In this document: one piece after another, positions 10,152-40,265 of the stretch
How positions within the stretch are numbered: the first letter of the stretch is position 1
Layout: each line of letters starts with the position of its first letter
DNA from: Runella sp.
Lineage (GTDB): Bacteria; Bacteroidota; Bacteroidia; Cytophagales; Spirosomataceae
Length of the DNA stretch: 64,000 bases
Assembly (NCBI RefSeq): GCF_027484545.1
Contig: NZ_JAIXST010000034.1
Coordinates: 1,211 to 65,210, forward strand
Direction: 5' to 3'
Program-made: the position numbers and the translations under genes
The notes under the pieces: generated by a model
Database searches by the model: none
What the model was told of the DNA's origin: nothing
The model's input: only the letters and a program-made list of their open reading frames with translations

Positions 10152-11526
<1,375 letters not shown>

Positions 11527-30486: not shown

Positions 30487-30535
30487 GTACTTAACGCGAC
30501 AAAATTGCTATTTTTAAGCCAAAATACGAAACCTT

Positions 30536-31216
30536 ATGCTGACGCAGTCCACCTTTATTTTTTTAAAAGACTTAGCCGAAAACAATAACCGTGAATGGTT
30601 TGCCGAAAATCGTAAACGTTACGAAGCCTCCAAAAAAGAGATTGAGATATTGGTAGGTGCTTTGCTCAAAGGCGTGAATGAATTTGAACCGTTGCCCAAC
30701 ACGGAAGTAAAAGACTGTATTTTTCGCATCAATCGCGACATTCGCTTCTCCAAAGATAAATCGCCTTACAAGCAATGGTTTAGTGCAGCTATCGGTCCGG
30801 GTGGTCGGCATTCCGGCAGAATAGATTTTTACCTGCATATTCAGGCGGGAGAATCGTTTTTGGGAGCAGGGATGTGGAATCCGACTCCTAAGCAATTGGC
30901 CAAGTTTCGGCAGGAAATAGATTTTAATCCTGAAGCCTTAAAAAGTATCATCCAGGCTCCTGAATTCAGAAGTTATTTCCCCGAAATATGGGGAGAAAGC
31001 CTTCAACGGATGCCCAAAGGGTATCCTGAAAATCATCCTGATATAGAATTATTGAAGCGTAAACAGTTGTTTTTCATGCACAAATATTCCGATGCAGAAG
31101 TTACTTCGCCCGGTTTTGCAGCCGAAGTAGTGAAAGGGTGCCGTTTGATTAAGCCTTATTGTGAATTTCTGAATTACCTGTTTTTTGAGGAAGCTGAGGA
31201 GACGTTTGAGTTGTAA
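30536..31216 (+). CDS. DUF2461 family protein
   Basis: FLKDLAENNNREWFAENR, FRINRDIRFSKDKSPYK, PKGYPENHPDIELLKRK. Confidence 0.9.
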   Translation: MLTQSTFIFLKDLAENNNREWFAENRKRYEASKKEIEILVGALLKGVNEFEPLPNTEVKDCIFRINRDIRFSKDKSPYKQWFSAAIGPGGRHSGRIDFYLHIQAGESFLGAGMWNPTPKQLAKFRQEIDFNPEALKSIIQAPEFRSYFPEIWGESLQRMPKGYPENHPDIELLKRKQLFFMHKYSDAEVTSPGFAAEVVKGCRLIKPYCEFLNYLFFEEAEETFEL

Positions 31217-31293
31217 TTTTGCGTTGCTAACGCACACTCTGTTATCCGAAATTTTCCGTATTTTTATTTCAAATTTTAACAACTCTTTTGACA

Positions 31294-31722
31294 ATGGGCT
31301 TAGTTTATGCAGAAATAGAATTAATAAATGCAGGCGATTTAGAACTTGCAAGACGGTACTATATTGGAGAAGATGAAATCAAACGAATGTGGGTAACGGG
31401 CTTAGTGGATACGGGTAGTTATATGCTGTGCATCAACGAATCTATTCAGGCACAAATGCAGTTTCCGGTGATGGAAAAGTGTATTGGGCAAATGTCCAAT
31501 GGCGACCGTATCGAATGTGACGTTGTAAGCCAAGTAGAGGTGCGTTTCAAAAACCGAAGAACCATCTGCAATGCCATGATATTGCCGGGTGATAGTGAAG
31601 TGCTGATTGGAGCAATACCTTTGGAAGATATGGATGTGCTAATTCATCCATTAAGACAAGAACTTATCGTCAATCCCGATCACCCCTACTTTGCCCAAAT
31701 GAAATTAAAAGGAGTTCGATAA
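31294..31722 (+). CDS. Clan AA (retropepsin-like) aspartic protease
   Basis: MGLVYAEIELIN, GLVDTGS, LIGAIPLEDMD, LIVNPDHP. Confidence 0.85.
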   Translation: MGLVYAEIELINAGDLELARRYYIGEDEIKRMWVTGLVDTGSYMLCINESIQAQMQFPVMEKCIGQMSNGDRIECDVVSQVEVRFKNRRTICNAMILPGDSEVLIGAIPLEDMDVLIHPLRQELIVNPDHPYFAQMKLKGVR

Positions 31723-31760
31723 GAATGAAAATCGTTTTGAAACCTTAACACGATATAACG

Positions 31761-32168
31761 ATGAACCCCGAAAAAATGAGTTGGGAATATCTATCTAAGT
31801 ATAGTCAGTTTTTGAATTATATCAGTACTGAGCCCGAACTTCCTGTTGCCTTAACCCAAATATGGGATGAGTACTATAATTTTACTGTTAAATTGCTCGA
31901 ATTCGGCCACAGTAAAGGAATCGCAAAGGAAGATTGCGAGCTTTACTTAAAATTACCCAAACCTCAAATGTATGATATTGTGCGAATGGATTTGGATATT
32001 TTGCAGACTCAGACCTCCTTACTGCTCTTTTTAATCAGCCATTACAGAGTCCATTATCTTCAGGAAAGAAAGGAGTACCTTTTCGGCCTTAAAATTGCTG
32101 ACATGACCGAGGACGAATACAGGGATCTTGTAAAAATTATTAACATGAGCGAAAAATACAGGAAGTAG
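31761..32168 (+). CDS. Hypothetical protein (135 aa)
   Basis: Clean ORF following the protease; no recognised motif. Confidence 0.6.
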   Translation: MNPEKMSWEYLSKYSQFLNYISTEPELPVALTQIWDEYYNFTVKLLEFGHSKGIAKEDCELYLKLPKPQMYDIVRMDLDILQTQTSLLLFLISHYRVHYLQERKEYLFGLKIADMTEDEYRDLVKIINMSEKYRK

Positions 32169-32182
32169 CCCCTAAACGATTC

Positions 32183-32329
32183 TTATTTCTGGAATTTCCA
32201 CAGAAGCACCAGTACAACCAAGACAACAATCCAAACCCACCAAGGGGTTTTCTGAAACATTTCACCCATTAAATTGGGAACTCCCTGATTGGAGCGACGA
32301 GAAGGCGGGGAATAACGTGAACGTGCCAT
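32183..32329 (-). CDS. Putative small membrane protein (48 aa), below the ORF-track cutoff
   Basis: Hand translation MARSRYSPPSRRSNQGVPNLMGEMFQKTPWWVWIVVLVVLVLLWKFQK. Confidence 0.65.
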   Translation of the reverse strand: MARSRYSPPSRRSNQGVPNLMGEMFQKTPWWVWIVVLVVLVLLWKFQK

Positions 32330-32399
32330 ATCGGTGTTTTTTAGATAAAAGTAGGAAGATTAACAAAAGTAATCGTGAGTTTTTATCTGTCCGCTTTCG

Positions 32400-33677
32400 T
32401 TAATAACGTTTCAAAATTTTCTCCGTCAAATCTTTCGCCAGTTTTTCTAAATCCGTTCCTAATTTTTCTTTGTTGACGGTCAATACCTGCCTTTTCATTT
32501 TTTCGGGTAAATGATCAGCTCCCCAATACGCCCCCAAAATGCCGCCTGCAATCGCGGAAGTAGTATCATTGTCGCGACCAAGATTCACGAGAAAAGCCAT
32601 GGTTTTTTCAAAATCAAAATCGCAGAACAACAGTGCCGTTATTACCTGTAAATAAATTTCTCCTGCGTGGAAGGGCATATCTTGGGTTTGAGCATCCAGA
32701 AGTTCAAACGCTTTGTACATGCGCGCCATGAAAAGCGTGTCGGCGTTAAGATTTTTGGGTAAGGGGAAGTTTGAAAGAGGGATGTCTTTCTTTTGAAGTT
32801 TATTGGCTTCCGAAACAATCAATCTTGCTTGTTGCAGAATTCGGTAGGCCGAACGCCCCACTAATCTGCTTTTGAAAAAATGCTGCGGGTCAATGGTTCT
32901 TGCTACGTTGATAATAGTCGTTTTTGAAGGATTTTTACGCATTGCTTCCGACGTCATTGCGGCTGCTAAACCGCTGATATCTCGGGCGTAGCCGATGTCA
33001 AAAAGGCTGATTTTGTACATTTGTCGGTAGGCTTCCGTAGGGTTTTCAGGATAAAAAGCCCCCACGGCAGGTGCGTATAGCAGTCCTGCACATACCATTT
33101 CACCCCCATAAAACCGACTCAAAGAATCGGTATAGGCCGCGTAATTTTTTTCAGCAAAAGGCTTAGCTACCCGTGCCCATTCCTGCAACCAAGCCATGCG
33201 CATGAGATTCATTTCATAAGGTTCGGGATCAAAACCTTCCGTTTTTTTGAGTCGTTTCAGGTCGTTTTCGTATTGTTTGACCAAATGTGCCGCAAATTGA
33301 CCTGCGTCTAAATCGCCTGAATTGGCCTGAGTGAGTAAAAATTCTATTGTCAATTTTTTCCAGCGAGTGTCGTCGGTGGTGCCTCCTGCGGGGAGATTAT
33401 ATGCCCACGTTCCTTCAGCTGATGGTGCACGAACCATTGAATCCAATCTATCCACAAATCCGTATTCGAGTTGAATAGTGGGGCGCAGCCACATTTCGGT
33501 AGGAGCTCCCATGGCATCACCGATGGCTGAACCCAACAACATTCCGAAGACTTTGTCGTAGAGTTCGTCGCGGGTAAGGGAAGATTTCGAAATGGGCGAT
33601 TCAACGGCATTATTTGGCTTTTGTGGCTGGCAACTCCAGAGGAGGGCGGTAGAAAATAAAAGTAGAAAAATTCGCAT
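32400..33677 (-). CDS. ADP-ribosylglycohydrolase family lipoprotein
   Basis: Lipobox LWSC; GSAIGDAMGAP, GTTDDT, GRDNDTTSAIAGGILGA. Confidence 0.88.
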   Translation of the reverse strand: MRIFLLLFSTALLWSCQPQKPNNAVESPISKSSLTRDELYDKVFGMLLGSAIGDAMGAPTEMWLRPTIQLEYGFVDRLDSMVRAPSAEGTWAYNLPAGGTTDDTRWKKLTIEFLLTQANSGDLDAGQFAAHLVKQYENDLKRLKKTEGFDPEPYEMNLMRMAWLQEWARVAKPFAEKNYAAYTDSLSRFYGGEMVCAGLLYAPAVGAFYPENPTEAYRQMYKISLFDIGYARDISGLAAAMTSEAMRKNPSKTTIINVARTIDPQHFFKSRLVGRSAYRILQQARLIVSEANKLQKKDIPLSNFPLPKNLNADTLFMARMYKAFELLDAQTQDMPFHAGEIYLQVITALLFCDFDFEKTMAFLVNLGRDNDTTSAIAGGILGAYWGADHLPEKMKRQVLTVNKEKLGTDLEKLAKDLTEKILKRY

Positions 33678-33766
33678 AGAAAAATCCTGTTTTGCTAACT
33701 GGTAAATATACAAATTTCAATGCTGTGGGAGGAATATAGTACAAATTTGTGCTTGTTTTGGAGGAT

Positions 33767-36466
33767 TTATTGCCCGGAAGCCTGTTCACTTTCAGCTACT
33801 TTCTTTTTCCTAACGCCAAAGTTATCAATGTCTTTCTCCTTGGAAAGCAGGAACTCAAGAAACGATTTGTTTTGAAAACGACAGGTTTGCATTATACTAA
33901 CTAAACGGAGGTAATATAGTGTTGTACTCTCAAATAAAGTACCTGATATTTTTCTCTGAGTACAAATATGTCTTAATGCTCTTTCTGCTGAATTGTTATG
34001 CCAATTAACGTTGTCATGATCTAAAAAAGTGAATAAGTGATTTCGATGTCGGATGAACCTTTTTTGATAGAGACTACAAAGTTCTGATTTATAGGTTTTA
34101 TCATCAATGTGACTTTTATAAAATCTATCTATATATTTTTTGTATTTCGATAGAAAATGTTTTTTTAACCCGTGTTTATGTACAGTTTGGATAATGGGTA
34201 CAATTAAATTCCGAACCTCTGAAACGAAACATTCGTATTCTTTGTCAAAAGGATTATCCCATAAATCATTGTTCAAATCACGAATGAAATGAACCCAACA
34301 TTTTTGCTGAGGGCAGTCAATATTGTCATAACCAGCGTAAAAATCAGTAACCAAAACACCCTTGTAGTTTTTAAGAAATTCATCAGCTAAGTTCGATTCT
34401 CTATTTTTTGAGAGCCTTAAAATAACATATTTATCATTAGTGAAAACCCAAACATATTGATTCTCCCCACGAATATTAATTGAGGTTTCATCAGCATGGA
34501 CAAAGGGGCTGTCTAATAGTTTTTTGACTATATTATCTTCTGTTTCTTGGTAAAAACACCCTAAATTTTTTATGAAGTTAGAATAATTTCCTTCACAACT
34601 CATTTTTTTGCCAAAAATTGACTCCAGACATTCTCCGATTTTTGAATACGGCAATTGTAGTGAGACCCTTTGATAAATTAGCCATGCTTTGAAATTATGG
34701 CCATAAATTTTTGAACGTTCCAAATAAAAAGAGTGGAAATGCATTTTGTGGCACAATTCGCAATAACCTCTAAACCCTTCATATTTCACAACACTTTTTC
34801 TAACTCCATTTTCAGTGAATACAATATCTACAATTATTCTAATTGAAGTTGTTTGGGTAGTAGAAAGTTTGGTTTCTGGGTGTTGAGGGCAAAATTCTGG
34901 GTGATTAATAAATACTTTTTTGGTAATTTTAGGGGGAGAGAAAGTCACACCTATTCTTTTTTGTTTTACTCGTTCAACGACTTCTTTATCAAATGAAATT
35001 TTGGATTTATTAGCGTTATTATGAGCTAATTCAAGTATATTTTTAAACTGATTATGAACACCTTGACTAATTTCAGAAGCTATTTTCTTAGGATTTTGAA
35101 CAAATTCTACGTCATTTGAAACAGTTGCCGTTGTTTGGATTCGGGTCAATTCATCGGTCAATATTTTTAGGGCTAAACAGTCTTCTTGGTTGTAGTTCAG
35201 TAAATCGTCTTTTCGTTTTGTTTGGCCTCTTTCCCACTCGTTACGCCAACTAATCGTTTGCAAACCGGAAGCCTTTTCATCTGTCCACTTCACCCCCAAT
35301 GATTTGCCTAAATCCTTCAAACCGTTTGAGTAAGTTGGGAAGTAAATCTTCCCGTAAATGAACGAGTTGATGTTGACAAATCGCTTTTTGATGCTCTCAA
35401 TGTTGGTTTGATGCTTTTTGGCTAACTTTTCAAATGCGGATGGCTCAAACGTGCCGTAATGATAAATAGGGCTTTCGGGATAAGAGTCAATCAAATGCAC
35501 TACTTTTTGCCAATTTTCGCTTTCATCTTTTGGACTATCAACCCAAAAAGAATAATGCTTGGACTTTTCGTTCTCTACAACCAAAACACCAAAAAGGTAA
35601 TAAAAGCTGTCGTCGGGTAAGCCCTCCATGTCTAAAAATAACTCAACCGGTTTTCTATCAATACTTGGCAGCCGTTGGATATACGTTTTTTCAGTACGAA
35701 TGGCAAGTGCTTGTAATTCGGGTTTGTAAGAGATAGGTGGATTTTTTACTCGTTTATTTCTACGGCGTGGTTTGTAAATAAAGGAAAGCTGTTTCACGGT
35801 AAAAATGCCCTTTTTCTCCAGCTTACTGATTTGCTTGATGGTAATTCGGTCGAGCAAACTCAAATTATCCTCTTTTTGGGCTTGGGTTTTGCAGAAGGTT
35901 TCAAACGAACATTGACTACAATGCTTATTCAAAAGTAATTTTGGGGGATTGGCTTCAAAGTCCTGGATTTCGGCTACTACGGCTTTGATTTGCTTTTTTA
36001 GTTTACTTAGTTCAACACGATGTTTTCCACCACTTTTATCAATAATTACTCCCTTTTCAGGGAATTTATTTTGAATTTTTTCGAGCAAATAGCCTAAAAA
36101 TGCTAATTCTAAGCGGTTTTCTTTGGAGATTAGGTTCGTACCCAGAAATAGAGCAGGCTCATAATAGAATTTTCCCAAAGCTGATTTTCCTTCATTTTTC
36201 ACCAGAATCGGACTTTCAAATTCAAACCCCTCAATATGCTGTCTGCAATGGCGAATTACCTCAAAGCCTTTCTTTAAAATACCGTTATTATAACCTTGAA
36301 TGTCGGGAGATTTTTGTAGATACTCCTCGAATGCCTGATTTTGAAACGACTGAAGCAGAGTCTCATAATTAGTGAGCTGGTAAGTCTCGGAAGAATTGAG
36401 CATTAAAAATGCTTTTCGAGGACAGCGGAGATAAGCAGCTATGTGCTCAGAAGTGATTGATTTCAT
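33767..36466 (-). mobile_element. Fusion protein: TM0106/Cas4-like domain + HhH + DEDD-type (RNase_H_2-like) exonuclease + IS66-family DDE transposase
   Basis: YLRCPRK and HCSQCSFETFC; LFLDMEG, HYGTFE, LLNYNQEDC; IS66 motifs HADETS, YVWVF, LVTDFYAGYD, QKCWVHFIRDL, NNSAERALR, RKIS. Confidence 0.85.
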
Positions 36467-36560
36467 GGACGTTAAGAGGGTTTAGAGTTTATATCATCTT
36501 AACGTTAATAGGCTTAAATCAATTGTATTTTCATGATGTTCACTAACTGTTATGCAAAAA

Positions 36561-36607
36561 AAGCGTCGGTCGGTTTGGAACGGGATTGTCCAAACCGACC
36601 GACGCTT
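36561..36607 (-). terminator. Hairpin terminator, near-duplicate of the sdhB terminator
   Basis: 19-bp perfect arms AAGCGTCGGTCGGTTTGGA / TCCAAACCGACCGACGCTT, followed by a T tract on the minus strand. Confidence 0.85.
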
Positions 36608-36720
36608 AACATCGTACCGTTTTTAGAAACCACATTATCTGAAGTATGATGCTTGACAACTGGCCTGTAAAATAAGATACAGGTCAGGTTTCGATGTGTA
36701 AATGTAAGGGAAAACCTAAC

Positions 36721-38030
36721 TTACTTCCACGCTTTGTTCCTTCCTACAAACCACACGAGCTGAATAAAATTGAACTCCATTTGATCAAACATTACTTTCT
36801 TGCCTTCGGCTTTAAGGTGCAAGTTGGGGGTGTAACGTAAGTTGGTACGCAGCAGCCAAGTTTCAGCACGACTGATACGGATATCCCAGCCAAAAATAAC
36901 TCCAAGTGCTAATTTTTTGGCCTCAAAGGTTTTAACATTGCTGCCATCGGTGTCTGTAAACCGTAGATCCTCGTACGCAAGCGTAGGGCCAACGTAGGGT
37001 ACAAAGCCATGATAATCACCCAAAAACTTGTAAGTTTCGAGGGTATAAGAACGGCGTTGGTAGTTTAACTTTACATCATAGCCACTTGAACCATAGCGAA
37101 GTCTGCGGTATGAAAGTCCCACATTCAGGTCCAACTTATGAAAATACCGTCCTGCCGCCAGATCAGGAATGAGAGTTCCGGGATTTGATTGCTTCAAAAA
37201 TGGGTATTTGTCTTTGACATATTCCGATTTGCTTATTTCAAAAGTGCCTGACGGGCCAATTCCAGAATACCAACAATCCAGACGGTTTTTGGCTCCCAAT
37301 TTCTTTACGCCTACTTTCATGTAGCGTTCTCCACCTTTAGAGGCAAGCCCGCCGTTGGTATTTATCCAATACTCAAGCCTACGTTAAACGCCCACGGAGA
37401 TAGTGCTAGGGCACCGTATTGAGTGCGGGAAATGGGGTACTGATACTCCATATTTTTTTTGTAATTGACGCCTGCCTGAAACAATAGTTTTTTGGTGGCG
37501 TATACCACCCCTGCTTGATAAGGAAAAATTGTTTTAGCCACAGAGGGCACTGTTTTGTAAGTCTTGTTAGGGTCATTGGACACTTGAGCAAACCCAAGTC
37601 CTTTGAGCGACATTCCAACGTAAGGGCGAAGTTTACCTTCTTGAATAGCCCAAGGAAACACCCGAAAACCCGTCTCTACTCCTTCGCTATACGATACATT
37701 TCTGAGTTCTTTGGGTATCACTTTTCCAAATTTTGCGACAGGAATGGCCACGTAAAAATCAGCGTGTCCCCAGAAGTGTGTACCACCCAATAAAATCCGA
37801 GGCGAAGTTGTCCCTGAAAAATTAACCGATTGTAAACCGCCTTGTGTGGCGTATTGAGTAGTGCCACCCGAAGTAGTAAAAGCATCTACTCCAAAGTAAG
37901 ATTTAGCAAAAGAAGTTCTGATTTTAAGCCGCTCTACCGTTGTATCTTTTTCAGCGGTTTGAGCAAAAGCAGTCAGGTACGAGAGGAATAGGTAAAATAA
38001 AGTGGCTGTACTTTTGAATAAGGCTTTCAT
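36721..38030 (-). pseudogene. Outer-membrane beta-barrel-like exported protein split by one frameshift (ORFs 37362..38030 and 36721..37320)
   Basis: Signal peptide on the first ORF; the second frame is open upstream of its ATG as EYWINTNGGLASKGGERY; adding one base near 37370 fuses them into about 436 aa; both halves carry RPYVG / VPYVG. Confidence 0.65.
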
Positions 38031-38080
38031 AAAAATAGGCGTTTATGTTTTGATTGACACAAACGTAACAACCTAAAAAT

Positions 38081-38160
38081 TCACCCACAAAAAACAGGGG
38101 TGATGACCCCACTTTTGGGAAGAATATCCCGTTTTAGGGCTAATTACCCCTTTTTGGGAC
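38081..38160. promoter_or_regulatory. Four ~21-bp-spaced direct repeats, candidate LytTR operator
   Basis: TCACCC 38081, TGACCC 38104, TATCCC 38125, TTACCC 38144, each followed after a short spacer by GGG. Confidence 0.5.
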
Positions 38161-38171
38161 AAATGACAAGC

Positions 38172-39032
38172 CTATTTTTTGAAATATTCTTTCACTAAAT
38201 CGGTATAGCGACGGGCGACGGGTAGGGTGCAATCCCAATTTTGAAGCTGTAATTTGTAACCTTGAGCGTTGCCTGATATGGCAGTCACTTGACGCAAATT
38301 GATGATATAGGAACGATGGCAACGAGCAATAGGTGGATACTTGATTTGCTCCTCAATCCGACTTAGACTACTGCACAGCAATACTTTTTGAACTTTGTTT
38401 TCCTTCCAAAATACCACCTCCGAATAATTGTCTGCCGATTCGATAAACAACAGTTCTTCCGTTTTCACAATGAGAGTATCTTTTTCATTTTCGGCCAAGA
38501 GCCTGATTTCATTCTGTGGTGTAGGATTCGTTTCGATAGATGCCTCAGCACTTTTTACCAACAGGGAATCTGTAGCGTATTTTCTCAGCAAACGATTGTA
38601 ATTCACCAGCGTAATGACCGTGGCAGGAATAGTTCCAATGGAGGCTGTTATGCCCAGCCAAAACAACATACCTCTTAAATTAAAAATCCTGCCAAAAAAC
38701 CATTGGCTGTAAAATATATTCCCAAAGGTGATTAGGAGAATCACCAATACATTCCAAACAATCTCGCGGCCTACTGTCCAGTTTGCTTCTGAATACCAGT
38801 TTTTAAACCAATGAGGAACGATATAACTAACCAATGTTAGCCCCACAAACGTAATTACCCCGTAGCCCCCCTAAAACAAATGCCTTTCGGGGGTCTTGCC
38901 ATTCGGAAGTACCAAATGGTTGAAAAAAAATCAAAAAAAACTCACAAATAGCCCTGCTCCGGTCGCAGCCAATAGCCAATGACGCGTTGTGAAATGGTTG
39001 TGTGGGTAGGGTTGTGAAAAGTAGGATAACAT
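38172..39032 (-). pseudogene. Membrane-bound LytTR family regulator with two compensating homopolymer frameshifts
   Basis: LytTR domain (FIESADNY, RCHRSYIINL, LPVARRY) in ORF 38172..38846; ATG 39032 is in the same frame but hits TGA at 38931; T9 instead of T8 and G5 instead of G6 restore ...SFFLIFFQPFG...LGGYGVITFVGL. Confidence 0.8.
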
Positions 39033-39043
39033 AGTAAAAACCT

Positions 39044-39092
39044 AAAAAAAGCGTCAGTCGGTTTTGAACGGGTTGCCCAAACCGACCGACGC
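39044..39092 (-). terminator. Intrinsic terminator of the sdh operon
   Basis: GC hairpin followed by T7 on the minus strand, 20 nt after the sdhB stop. Confidence 0.85.
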
Positions 39093-39111
39093 CTAATGTA
39101 GCATGTTTGTA

Positions 39112-39876
39112 TTATACTTTATCGGAAGAAACCTTCGCTCCCAAATACTCGCGGTTGAGGCGGGCGATATGTTCCAAAGAAATTTCTTTCGGACATTCAG
39201 CCGAGCAGGCACCTGTGTTGGTACAAGCTCCAAAACCTTCTTCGTCCATTTGAGCTACCATACGTTCTGCCCGCATCGTACGTTCAGGCTGACCTTGAGG
39301 TAACAGGGAAAGTTGAGATACTTTGGCCGATACGAAAAGCATGGCTGAGGCATTTTTGCAGGCTGCTACGCAGGCACCGCAACCGATGCAGGCAGCGGCT
39401 GAAAAGGCTTCGTCAGCAGCGTCTTTCGCGATTGGAAGGCTGTTGGCATCCTGTGCGTTCCCTGTATTGACCGAAATATAGCCCCCTGCTGCCTGAATAC
39501 GGTCAAAAGCGGAACGGTCAACGACCAAATCCTTGATGATCGGAAAGGCTTTGGCGCGCCAAGGTTCTACCACGATGGTATCCCCGTCGCTGAAACTGCG
39601 CATGTGGAGTTGGCAGGTTGTTACAGCATCTTTTGGTCCGTGTGGGCGGCCGTTGATGTACATGCTGCACATACCGCAAATACCTTCACGGCAGTCGTGG
39701 TCAAAAGCGATAGGCTGTTGTCCTTCGTTGATGAGTTGTTCGTTCAAAACGTCGAACATCTCCAAAAATGACATATCGGGTGAGATACCGGTGAGTTGGT
39801 AGGTCTCAATTTTTCCCGCTGTTTTTTTATTTTTCTGACGCCATACTTTGAGGGTCAGGTTCATATTTCCTTCCAT
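39112..39876 (-). CDS. sdhB: Succinate dehydrogenase/fumarate reductase iron-sulfur subunit
   Basis: [41 protein letters not shown]. Confidence 0.97.
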
Positions 39877-39880
39877 TTGT

Positions 39881-39893
39881 GTTATCCGTTATC
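39881..39893. repeat. GTTATC heptamer pair at the 3' end of the four-helix gene
   Basis: GTTATC at 39881 and 39888; contains the gene's stop codon. Confidence 0.7.
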
Positions 39894-40265
39894 TGTACTT
39901 TTACGCTTTTTAAGATAATTGATATAACCATTAATGAGAGCCAGACATTTTTCTGCCTGTGTATCAATTGATTGTTGTTCATCAATAGTAATATAATTTT
40001 CTTCAAGTGCAATCATAAAATGGTCTTGAACTTCTGTAAGAGAACCCCTACTAATTCTACAAAACTGAATGTTTTCCTGATAATTATACCTTCCAAAACC
40101 TTCAGCAATATTATTAGTAACAGAACGCAAAGAGCGAATAAGCTGATCCGTTAATCTATATTTTTCATCTGCGGGAAATCCATTCAAAAGCGGTTTTGCC
40201 ATTTTTCGAAGCTCGACGCCTTCTTTCCAACATTTTAAATCTCGAAAAGAGCGAATTTCATCCAT
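39882..40265 (-). CDS. Four helix bundle protein (23S rRNA IVS protein / TIGR02436-type family)
   Basis: [45 protein letters not shown]. Confidence 0.92.

Follow-up and report, generated by a model that had tools for sequence, protein, structure and literature searches.

The fusion gene and its protein

The 64,000-nucleotide (nt) stretch of Runella sp. DNA analysed here, referred to below as the window (RefSeq assembly GCF_027484545.1, contig NZ_JAIXST010000034.1, positions 1,211 to 65,210), carries on its minus strand a gene in which a TM0106-type nuclease module is fused to an IS66-type DDE transposase. The open reading frame (ORF) is uninterrupted, with zero internal stops, and codes for a protein of 899 amino acids (aa). 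It belongs to a very large and essentially unstudied family, whose members appear, as far as their sequences tell, to be transposases of the IS66 superfamily with a permanently fused, predicted end-processing module and without transposon ends. The gene comprises the following parts (window coordinates).

33767–36466, minus strand: TM0106-type module and IS66-type DDE transposase in one 899-aa ORF (Pfam, NCBIfam, translation)
35867–36466, minus strand: Cas4-like iron–sulphur (Fe-S) domain, aa 1–200, with cysteines C15, C183, C186 and C192 (Pfam, alignment, Foldseek with Cas4 4r5q and Dna2, PADLOC)
35657–35866, minus strand: HhH-like helices and a basic loop, aa 201–270 (AlphaFold2 model, conservation)
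35132–35656, minus strand: DEDDy 3'-5' exonuclease domain PF13482, aa 271–445, with D279, E281, H336-Y337-G338 and Y425-N426-x-x-D429 (Pfam, alignment, Foldseek)
34940–35014, minus strand: disordered linker joining the two modules, aa 485–509, predicted local distance difference test (pLDDT) below 50 (AlphaFold2)
34712–34930, minus strand: Zn-ribbon/beta-hairpin region, aa 513–585, with C526, H/C529, C569 and C572 (alignment, AlphaFold2)
33812–34711, minus strand: IS66-type DDE catalytic core, aa 586–885, with D659, D708 and E828 (Pfam, NCBIfam, alignment, Foldseek)

Among the Pfam families, Cas_Cas4 is matched at aa 115–193 with 23.8 bits, barely above the cut-off, RNase_H_2 (PF13482) at aa 276–440 (1.8e-26), and DDE_Tnp_IS66 (PF03050) at aa 587–843 (1.3e-34). 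The NCBIfam model TIGR03491 (TM0106 RecB-like nuclease) is matched by aa 4–438 over its positions 1–460 of 462, with 266.9 bits at a cut-off of 97.45, and the transpos_IS66 equivalog (NF033517) by aa 513–874, with 181.5 bits at a cut-off of 180. The PADLOC model of Cas4 spans aa 2–194 of the fusion protein. The AlphaFold2 model, built on the family alignment, has a pLDDT of 87.7 and consists of two modules, aa 1–484 and 510–886, with the disordered linker between them. In a Foldseek comparison with the PDB, the first 200 aa resemble Dna2 and the Cas4 protein Pcal_0546 (TM-score of 0.52 on the target), the middle part the exonuclease domains of family-B polymerases, and the C-terminal half the ISCth4 and Hermes transposases and retroviral integrase cores. 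No solved structure detectable by sequence was found for either the TM0106 half or the IS66 half.

Residue conservation and selection

Conservation was assessed on 111 full-length homologs of 45–75% identity. In the Cas4-like domain, C183, C186 and C192 are each present in 111 of 111 sequences and C15 in 105, the remaining six rows having a gap at this position. The Asp and Lys of the canonical PD-(D/E)xK nuclease site are absent family-wide: position 90 is K or R, and the region of motif III reads Y102-E103-P104-T/A105. The domain still retains E/D33, E103, E116-x-K/R118 and Q132; without the canonical triad, its nuclease site is predicted from residue conservation to be inactive. The HhH-like segment that follows (aa 201–270) is the best-conserved stretch of the protein, with a mean top-residue frequency of 0.74. 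The exonuclease residues D279, E281, Y337, Y425, N426 and D429 are found in all 111 homologs and H336 in 110. At the putative zinc site, C569 and C572 are invariant, C526 is present in 110 sequences, and position 529 is occupied by H in 83 and by C in 24, which is the swap expected for a zinc ligand. The transposase residues D659, D708 and E828 are conserved in 111 of 111, and the further invariant residues of the DDE core are C718, C723, H726, N824, N825 and R832.

An earlier note, made from the letters of this stretch alone, had named most of these features: a 1+3 cysteine pattern of a Cas4-like cluster at C15 and C183/C186/C192, a degenerate PD-(D/E)xK site, a DEDD-type exonuclease, a Zn-finger-like C526/H529/C569/C572, and an IS66 transposase with D659, D708 and E828 intact. 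Each of these calls is borne out by the alignment at the very positions named, with K/R90 and Y-E-P-T/A standing where the canonical Asp and Lys would be. The note had also considered that the catalytic residues might be eroding among homologs. They are conserved, and the ratio of nonsynonymous to synonymous substitution rates (dN/dS), computed on copies from different contexts, is 0.1–0.18 for every domain, the Cas4-like one included. This substitution pattern shows all three catalytic or metal-binding modules to be, as judged from sequence, held by purifying selection.

Size and distribution of the family

A word-indexed search gave 1785 matches among 8000 candidates; of the best 120 matches, 111 are fusions of 860–940 aa, the others being truncated or extended forms. 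With HMMER, 1.84 billion cluster representatives (50% identity) were searched exhaustively, and 891 clusters were returned at E<=1e-30, so the homologs are not the rare one-off chimeras that the earlier note had allowed for. The best 150 HMMER matches are nearly all 880–960 aa long and align in a single stretch over approximately aa 4–889, down to 30% identity. The fusions come from at least five bacterial phyla, and their sources include Flavobacterium, Flavobacteriales, Saprospiraceae, Pyrinomonadales, Poribacteria, Anaerolineae, Ktedonobacteraceae, Calothrix and Acaryochloris. The similarity does not follow taxonomy, as the Acidobacteriota copy at locus L015 (63% identity) is nearer to the window protein than a Flavobacterium copy (54%).

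When each half was searched alone, with a length filter that leaves out proteins of 900 aa, fragments and split forms of the same fusion family were obtained, and a closer unfused lineage of either half was not found. The nearest relatives of each half are thus pieces of this very family, from which it follows that the fusion is old and makes up a branch of its own. Many half-length ORFs of the family are present in the protein collection. In a BLASTP comparison with the TnpC encoded at locus L043, the alignment covers only the NN..ER region, and in sequence the transposase half is very distant from canonical TnpC.

Within single lineages the gene is sparse. Among 61 genomes consisting of the window genome and its relatives, it is found in the window genome only and is absent from the 60 relatives, 19 of them of the same genus. 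It is present in one of 401 genomes of the phylum to which the window belongs (0.25%), being absent from the 400 others, in four of 401 genomes of Chloroflexota (about 1% of species), and in eight of 401 genomes of Acidobacteriota, full length in two of these (0.5–2% of species). A collection of 72,556 plasmids yielded two full-length matches, one on a Calothrix plasmid (L118, AP025022.1) and one on an Acaryochloris plasmid (L119, NZ_AP026079.1), and none was found in viral contigs. A tyrosine recombinase gene lies 0.6–3.6 kb downstream of both plasmid copies, and a VapC toxin–antitoxin pair directly upstream of one of them.

The database labels of these proteins are inconsistent, being either 'IS66 family transposase' or 'TM0106 family RecB-like putative nuclease', and the family is therefore hidden from both fields. 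Full-text literature searches combining TM0106/TIGR03491/COG2251 with IS66, IS66 with Cas4, and IS66 with RecB or exonuclease found no study of the fusion. The combined annotation is given without comment in a table of Challacombe and Kuske 2012 (PMC3469429).

The insertion in the Runella window

The gene is present in a single copy in the 7.1-Mb genome (G000) and sits exactly where two synteny blocks meet. In three genomes (G018, G008 and G015) the DUF2461 gene of this region lies ca. 650 bp from a block of outer-membrane-like genes, and in G019, of the same genus, a host hairpin and an sdhB-like gene come immediately after the ADP-ribosylglycohydrolase gene. The G019 junction served as a proxy of the empty site; it is just 78% identical, which limits the resolution of the junctions. 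The best fit to it delimits the following unit.

33746–36556, no strand assigned: inferred inserted unit of ca. 2.81 kb, with CAAA at both junctions (best fit to the unoccupied junction of G019)
36467–36556, minus strand: 5' leader of the inserted unit, ca. 90 nt, structure not unusual (junction fit)
33746–33766, minus strand: 3' tail of the inserted unit, ca. 21 nt (junction fit)

At the synteny junction there is an AT-richer insertion of about 2.8 kb, made up of the ORF with about 90 nt before it and about 20 nt after it. The G+C content is 0.31–0.39 within the gene vs 0.42–0.47 in the flanks, in agreement with the AT-richness already remarked upon in the earlier note. The two inferred junctions have only CAAA in common, and an 8-bp duplication is not seen against the 78% identical proxy. 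Given the A-rich context and that proxy, CAAA is weak support for a duplication of 3–4 bp and counts against one of 8 bp.

The neighbouring genes code for an ADP-ribosylglycohydrolase (ADP_ribosyl_GH), a DUF2461 protein, two unannotated outer-membrane-like proteins and a LytTR regulator; neither tnpA nor tnpB is among them, as had been stated from the first reading of the sequence. A GC-rich hairpin of ca. 50 nt is located at 36557–36613, with a second copy at 39044–39096 (AAAAAAGCGTCGGTCGG...CCGACCGACGCTT). It recurs in the genome and across the genus and is therefore host sequence, REP- or terminator-like. The two hairpin copies bracket the two outer-membrane-like genes and the LytTR regulator. 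The region upstream of the sdhB-like gene (30500–39900) is a rearrangement hot spot within the genus. Elsewhere in the window, at 10152–10225, there is a perfect 7-nt tandem repeat, TACTGCC, in 10.6 copies.

Ends and copy number across the family

About 100 loci of the family were collected, 51 of them with both flanks. The 350 nt before the gene were compared with the 350 nt after it for terminal inverted repeats (TIRs), against shuffled controls. An inverted repeat between the flanks did not exceed the shuffles in 50 of the 51 loci, nor in the window, and in 17 loci, including the window, one complete genome and the two finished plasmids, no TIRs were found out to 2.5–8 kb. The failure of the earlier note to find convincing TIRs thus extends to the family, and its proviso that the architecture could be that of an ordinary IS66 subgroup with standard TIRs is answered in the same way, such repeats not having been found.

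The approximate extent of the unit is best seen in four loci, L016, L017, L019 and L023, which share 82–85% DNA identity and lie in unrelated contexts (e.g., with a type IIG methylase neighbour or beside HipA). Their similarity stops 15–30 nt past the stop codon, at a common ATTGCACAAYGGAAAA, and upstream at about 0–95 nt, where a weak block, GTTGGTG.CTAC.GCA.AA, is common to L016, L017 and L023. The copy of L016 (G460:C5:36482-39036), from a metagenome-assembled genome of Saprospiraceae, is a pseudogene in which several stops and frameshifts interrupt the frame. On sequence comparison the unit is gene-sized, with boundaries near the ORF that are not sharply conserved, and no end of the kind bound by a transposase is maintained.

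In each of three phyla 400 genomes were scanned and the positive ones rescanned, and only single copies were found. In all, G000 and about 10 other genomes have one copy each. The copy of G1052 was detected as two adjacent pieces. In genome G459 the same insertion occurs a second time in diverged form; this second copy (C212) was considered as a new site and rejected, having the same insertion context at 88% identity. The sole report of multiple copies that we found is a table entry, in which four 'pfam03050 + COG2251' genes are listed for the complete genome of Ca. Solibacter usitatus Ellin6076 (Table 1, PMC3469429).

Several other candidates were set aside. The identical protein P0058, seemingly present in different contexts, proved to be one locus with differing gene calls. 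Short contigs do not serve as markers of the element edge, as host sequence is already included in them and none of the loci is closely related to them. The direct-repeat subgroup L028/L029/L032/L039 told nothing about boundaries, since indels and a neighbouring IS5-like element account for its differences. An IS110-style guide RNA in the 5' leader is not indicated (mean z of −0.17 vs −0.31 for ORF controls, p = 0.39), and no Rfam or tRNA matches occur near the gene in the eight to ten loci searched.

Direct repeats and neighbouring IS66 genes

Long direct repeats (32–115 nt, diverged) flank the gene in 6 of the 51 loci, with z values of 14–50 against shuffles; there is none around the copy in the window. 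The repeats are recorded as follows.

L015, 2653–2767 and 5709–5823; L093; L040; L043; L051; L065; L081: direct repeats flanking the gene

In L015 an orphan copy of the start of the downstream carboxyltransferase gene, ca. its first 37 codons, stands upstream; the repeat has a core of 41 identical nt between diverged arms. In L093 the upstream DegT-type gene has its 3' end repeated downstream, as an orphan of ca. 65% identity; this repeat is missing from the orthologous locus L085. In one subclade a sequence of 45–90 nt, designated X, lies right before the ATG and again ca. 145 nt past the stop codon, and in L035, which has another context, the downstream X copy is kept and the upstream one is not. 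The repeats could be long variable target duplications, the result of insertion via carried-along DNA of a previous host, or ends of the neighbouring IS66 elements. In the upstream 2.5 kb of L043, L051 and L065, a TnpB_IS66 gene (plus strand) and an IS66 tnpC gene (minus strand) are convergent, with overlapping stop codons, an arrangement different from the canonical co-oriented tnpA-tnpB-tnpC.

Interpretation

We read the gene as a whole mobile unit, non-canonical, low in copy number and spreading horizontally, derived from the IS66 superfamily and provided with its own end-processing module; our confidence in this reading is about even. A mobile unit is favoured over a resident host gene by the foreign composition, the patchy distribution and the cross-phylum similarity that ignores taxonomy, and also by the solo 2.8-kb insertion, the differing contexts of close relatives and the frequent decay. 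The two plasmid-borne copies and the four genes listed for Ca. Solibacter usitatus also count in its favour. The earlier note had left two possibilities, a novel element and a domesticated integrase. Between these, the solo insertion and the differing contexts lean towards the mobile unit. It is not an IS66-type insertion sequence (IS) in the defining sense, because TIRs, the 8-bp duplication and accessory genes were all looked for and not found.

As a mechanism, the DDE core at the C terminus would, with its Zn ribbon, cleave DNA and transfer strands. What a canonical IS66 element owes to accessory proteins and to defined inverted-repeat ends would come from the TM0106 module fused to this core. 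The four-cysteine Cas4-like domain, together with the HhH segment, may hold the DNA end, from which the DEDDy exonuclease would trim 3' tails to leave a transferable 3'-OH. An end made by processing, and not by sequence recognition, would entail the lack of TIRs, the fuzzy boundaries close to the ORF and the lack of a regular 8-bp duplication. Transposition within a genome would be rare, in keeping with one copy per genome, and the unit would spread mostly between genomes and then decay.

A number of observations weigh against this reading. If a transposase recognises the ends of its own element, these should be conserved, and here they are not. The upstream block seen in its 85% identical relatives is missing from L019, and L135 and L015, with ORFs 76% identical, have no similarity outside them. 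Across the family, the candidate end motifs do not rise above chance and are thus not general: the left one, ACTACYRCAAA, occurs in 13 of 70 loci with 6.4 expected, and the right one, GCACAAW, in 39 of 69 with 27.7 expected. Each fully scanned genome (G000, G458, G459, G618, G887, G1036 and G1052) has one copy, and no event of recent transposition was found among the loci, neither as a near-identical copy pair in different sites nor as a nucleotide-clean empty site. Some insertions are of long standing and have been inherited vertically with the ORF intact, as in L093 and L085, which have both flanks in common at 75% identity, and in L015 and L117 at 88% identity. Finally, the subclade with the X repeats always adjoins a separate single-ORF IS66 tnpC, on the opposite strand, and a TnpB_IS66 gene, and such constant adjacency is the appearance expected of cargo. 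The single copy, the fuzzy and non-conserved ends and the long vertical retention in some lineages sustain the domesticated reading.

According to this alternative, which is possible and to which we give roughly a third of our belief, an enzyme derived from a transposase has been recruited (exapted) for an accessory role in DNA processing or integration and does not mobilise itself; the role might be that of a helper of other mobile elements, or lie in repair or in an undescribed kind of defence. Islands, plasmids and IS66 composites, or illegitimate recombination, would carry it along passively. To the single copy in every genome scanned, the lack of TIRs and of conserved ends, the intact ORFs of vertically kept copies and the IS66 genes constantly adjacent in one subclade, it can add the uniform purifying selection and several loci rich in restriction–modification, toxin–antitoxin and recombinase genes. 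However, the insertion in the window is the gene alone amid host sequence, and close relatives have nothing in common but the ORF and short leaders, although neighbouring genes would normally travel along with cargo. Moreover, a conserved partner gene was not found, known defence families (PADLOC) match only via the Cas4 domain, the gene is absent from the viral contigs searched, and pseudogenes are frequent. If it were a recruited enzyme nevertheless, it would be among the most widespread bacterial transposase domestications.

A bolder version of the mobile-unit reading, which we consider rather unlikely, is that of a sequence-independent process-and-integrate enzyme, in which the Fe-S and HhH domains bind a free or nicked end, the protein's own exonuclease trims it, and the DDE core joins it to the target. 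If so, the gene could insert itself with variable flanking DNA, needing no terminal repeats, and the repeats at L015, L093 and X would be traces of the carried-along DNA of previous hosts. It would be a DDE counterpart of spacer integration by Cas1–Cas2/Cas4 and a new route to gene mobility.

That the gene is an ordinary IS of the IS66 family, of the single-ORF ISBst12 type, with overlooked short or degenerate inverted repeats and an 8-bp duplication, is very improbable and largely refuted. DDE_Tnp_IS66 and NF033517 score above their cut-offs, the ISBst12 group of IS66 (in the ISfinder classification) likewise consists of a single ORF without tnpA and tnpB, and ca. 2.8 kb fits the size range of IS elements. 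On the other side stand the inverted-repeat tests, with nothing above shuffles in 50 of 51 loci and nothing out to 2.5–8 kb in 17, the junctions with just CAAA in common, canonical TnpC aligning solely at NN..ER, and the score of 181.5 for NF033517 against its cut-off of 180.

Equally hard to credit is an immune module, similar to CRISPR adaptation or otherwise trimming and integrating, which would capture foreign DNA into a dedicated locus. The Cas4-like domain, DEDD exonuclease and integrase-type fold do make up the activity set of the Cas4–Cas1 and DnaQ–Cas2 fusions, and the earlier note had drawn that parallel. Its three-part architecture, the states of the active sites and the foreign composition all stood, whereas no link to CRISPR was found: there is no CRISPR-like array across the 64-kb window, as the note itself had seen for the adjacent DNA, and the two cas1 genes of the genome lie on other contigs (C216:11999-12880 and C16:7052-7966). 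Furthermore, the catalytic residues of Cas4 are missing, and a conserved neighbouring locus was not found in roughly 100 loci. Repeat arrays or recurrent target loci near family members were not seen either, though no array search aimed at all the loci was made. An assembly or gene-calling artefact fusing two genes, also envisaged in the note, has nothing for it beyond the unusual architecture and is already refuted by the same uninterrupted ORF in hundreds of independent assemblies, among them complete genomes, a 5.9-Mb contig and two finished plasmids, by the conserved linker region and by the single-stretch alignment across both halves.

Comparison with known systems

IS66 is a large IS family whose transposition chemistry is still poorly understood, and the fusion represents a branch in which the transposase has permanently gained a predicted exonuclease and a predicted Fe-S DNA-binding domain, without recognisable transposon ends. 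The IS66 elements are defined by an intact D,D,E triad, TIRs of about 15–30 bp, an 8-bp target-site duplication and, in the canonical group only, tnpA and tnpB. The C-terminal 390 aa of the fusion form a DDE core of this type, with the CxxC pair, C..C..H and NN..E...R, and as in the ISBst12 group there is a single ORF. It differs in having a 480-aa TM0106 module in place of the N-terminal part of TnpC, in the lack of TIRs, 8-bp duplication and tnpA/tnpB, in being present in one copy per genome, and in its distance from canonical TnpC. If the enzyme makes its own transferable ends, this would explain a DDE element without inverted repeats and would amount to a compact single-polypeptide integrase with few sequence requirements.

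The match to the TM0106 family (TIGR03491, COG2251) is over the full length, with both the four-cysteine Cas4-like and the PF13482 domains. That family is defined as stand-alone proteins of ca. 460 aa, sometimes with an AAA domain, whereas in the present proteins the module is joined to a transposase, and the fusion constitutes a large clade of its own. COG2251 consists of PF13482 and DUF83, and PF13482/COG2251 has been placed among predicted 3'-5' exonucleases (Majorek et al. 2014, PMC3985635).

By analogy, the fusion may also be compared with TnsA and TnsB of Tn7, in which a domain of restriction-enzyme fold works with a DDE transposase, and end processing is thereby combined with strand transfer. 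TnsA and TnsB are separate proteins, TnsA is active and cuts the 5' ends, and Tn7 has elaborate inverted ends and makes 5-bp duplications. Unlike TnsA, the fusion has no PD-(D/E)xK triad, and its extra nuclease predicted from sequence to be active is a 3'-5' exonuclease.

The Cas4–Cas1 and DnaQ(DEDDh)–Cas2 fusions differ in fold, with Cas1 there and a DDE RNase H fold in the IS66-type fusion, which moreover has no array, no Cas2, no CRISPR linkage and no Cas4 active site. What the two would share, by analogy, is the principle of an end-trimming nuclease joined to an integrase that uses processed, and not sequence-defined, ends.

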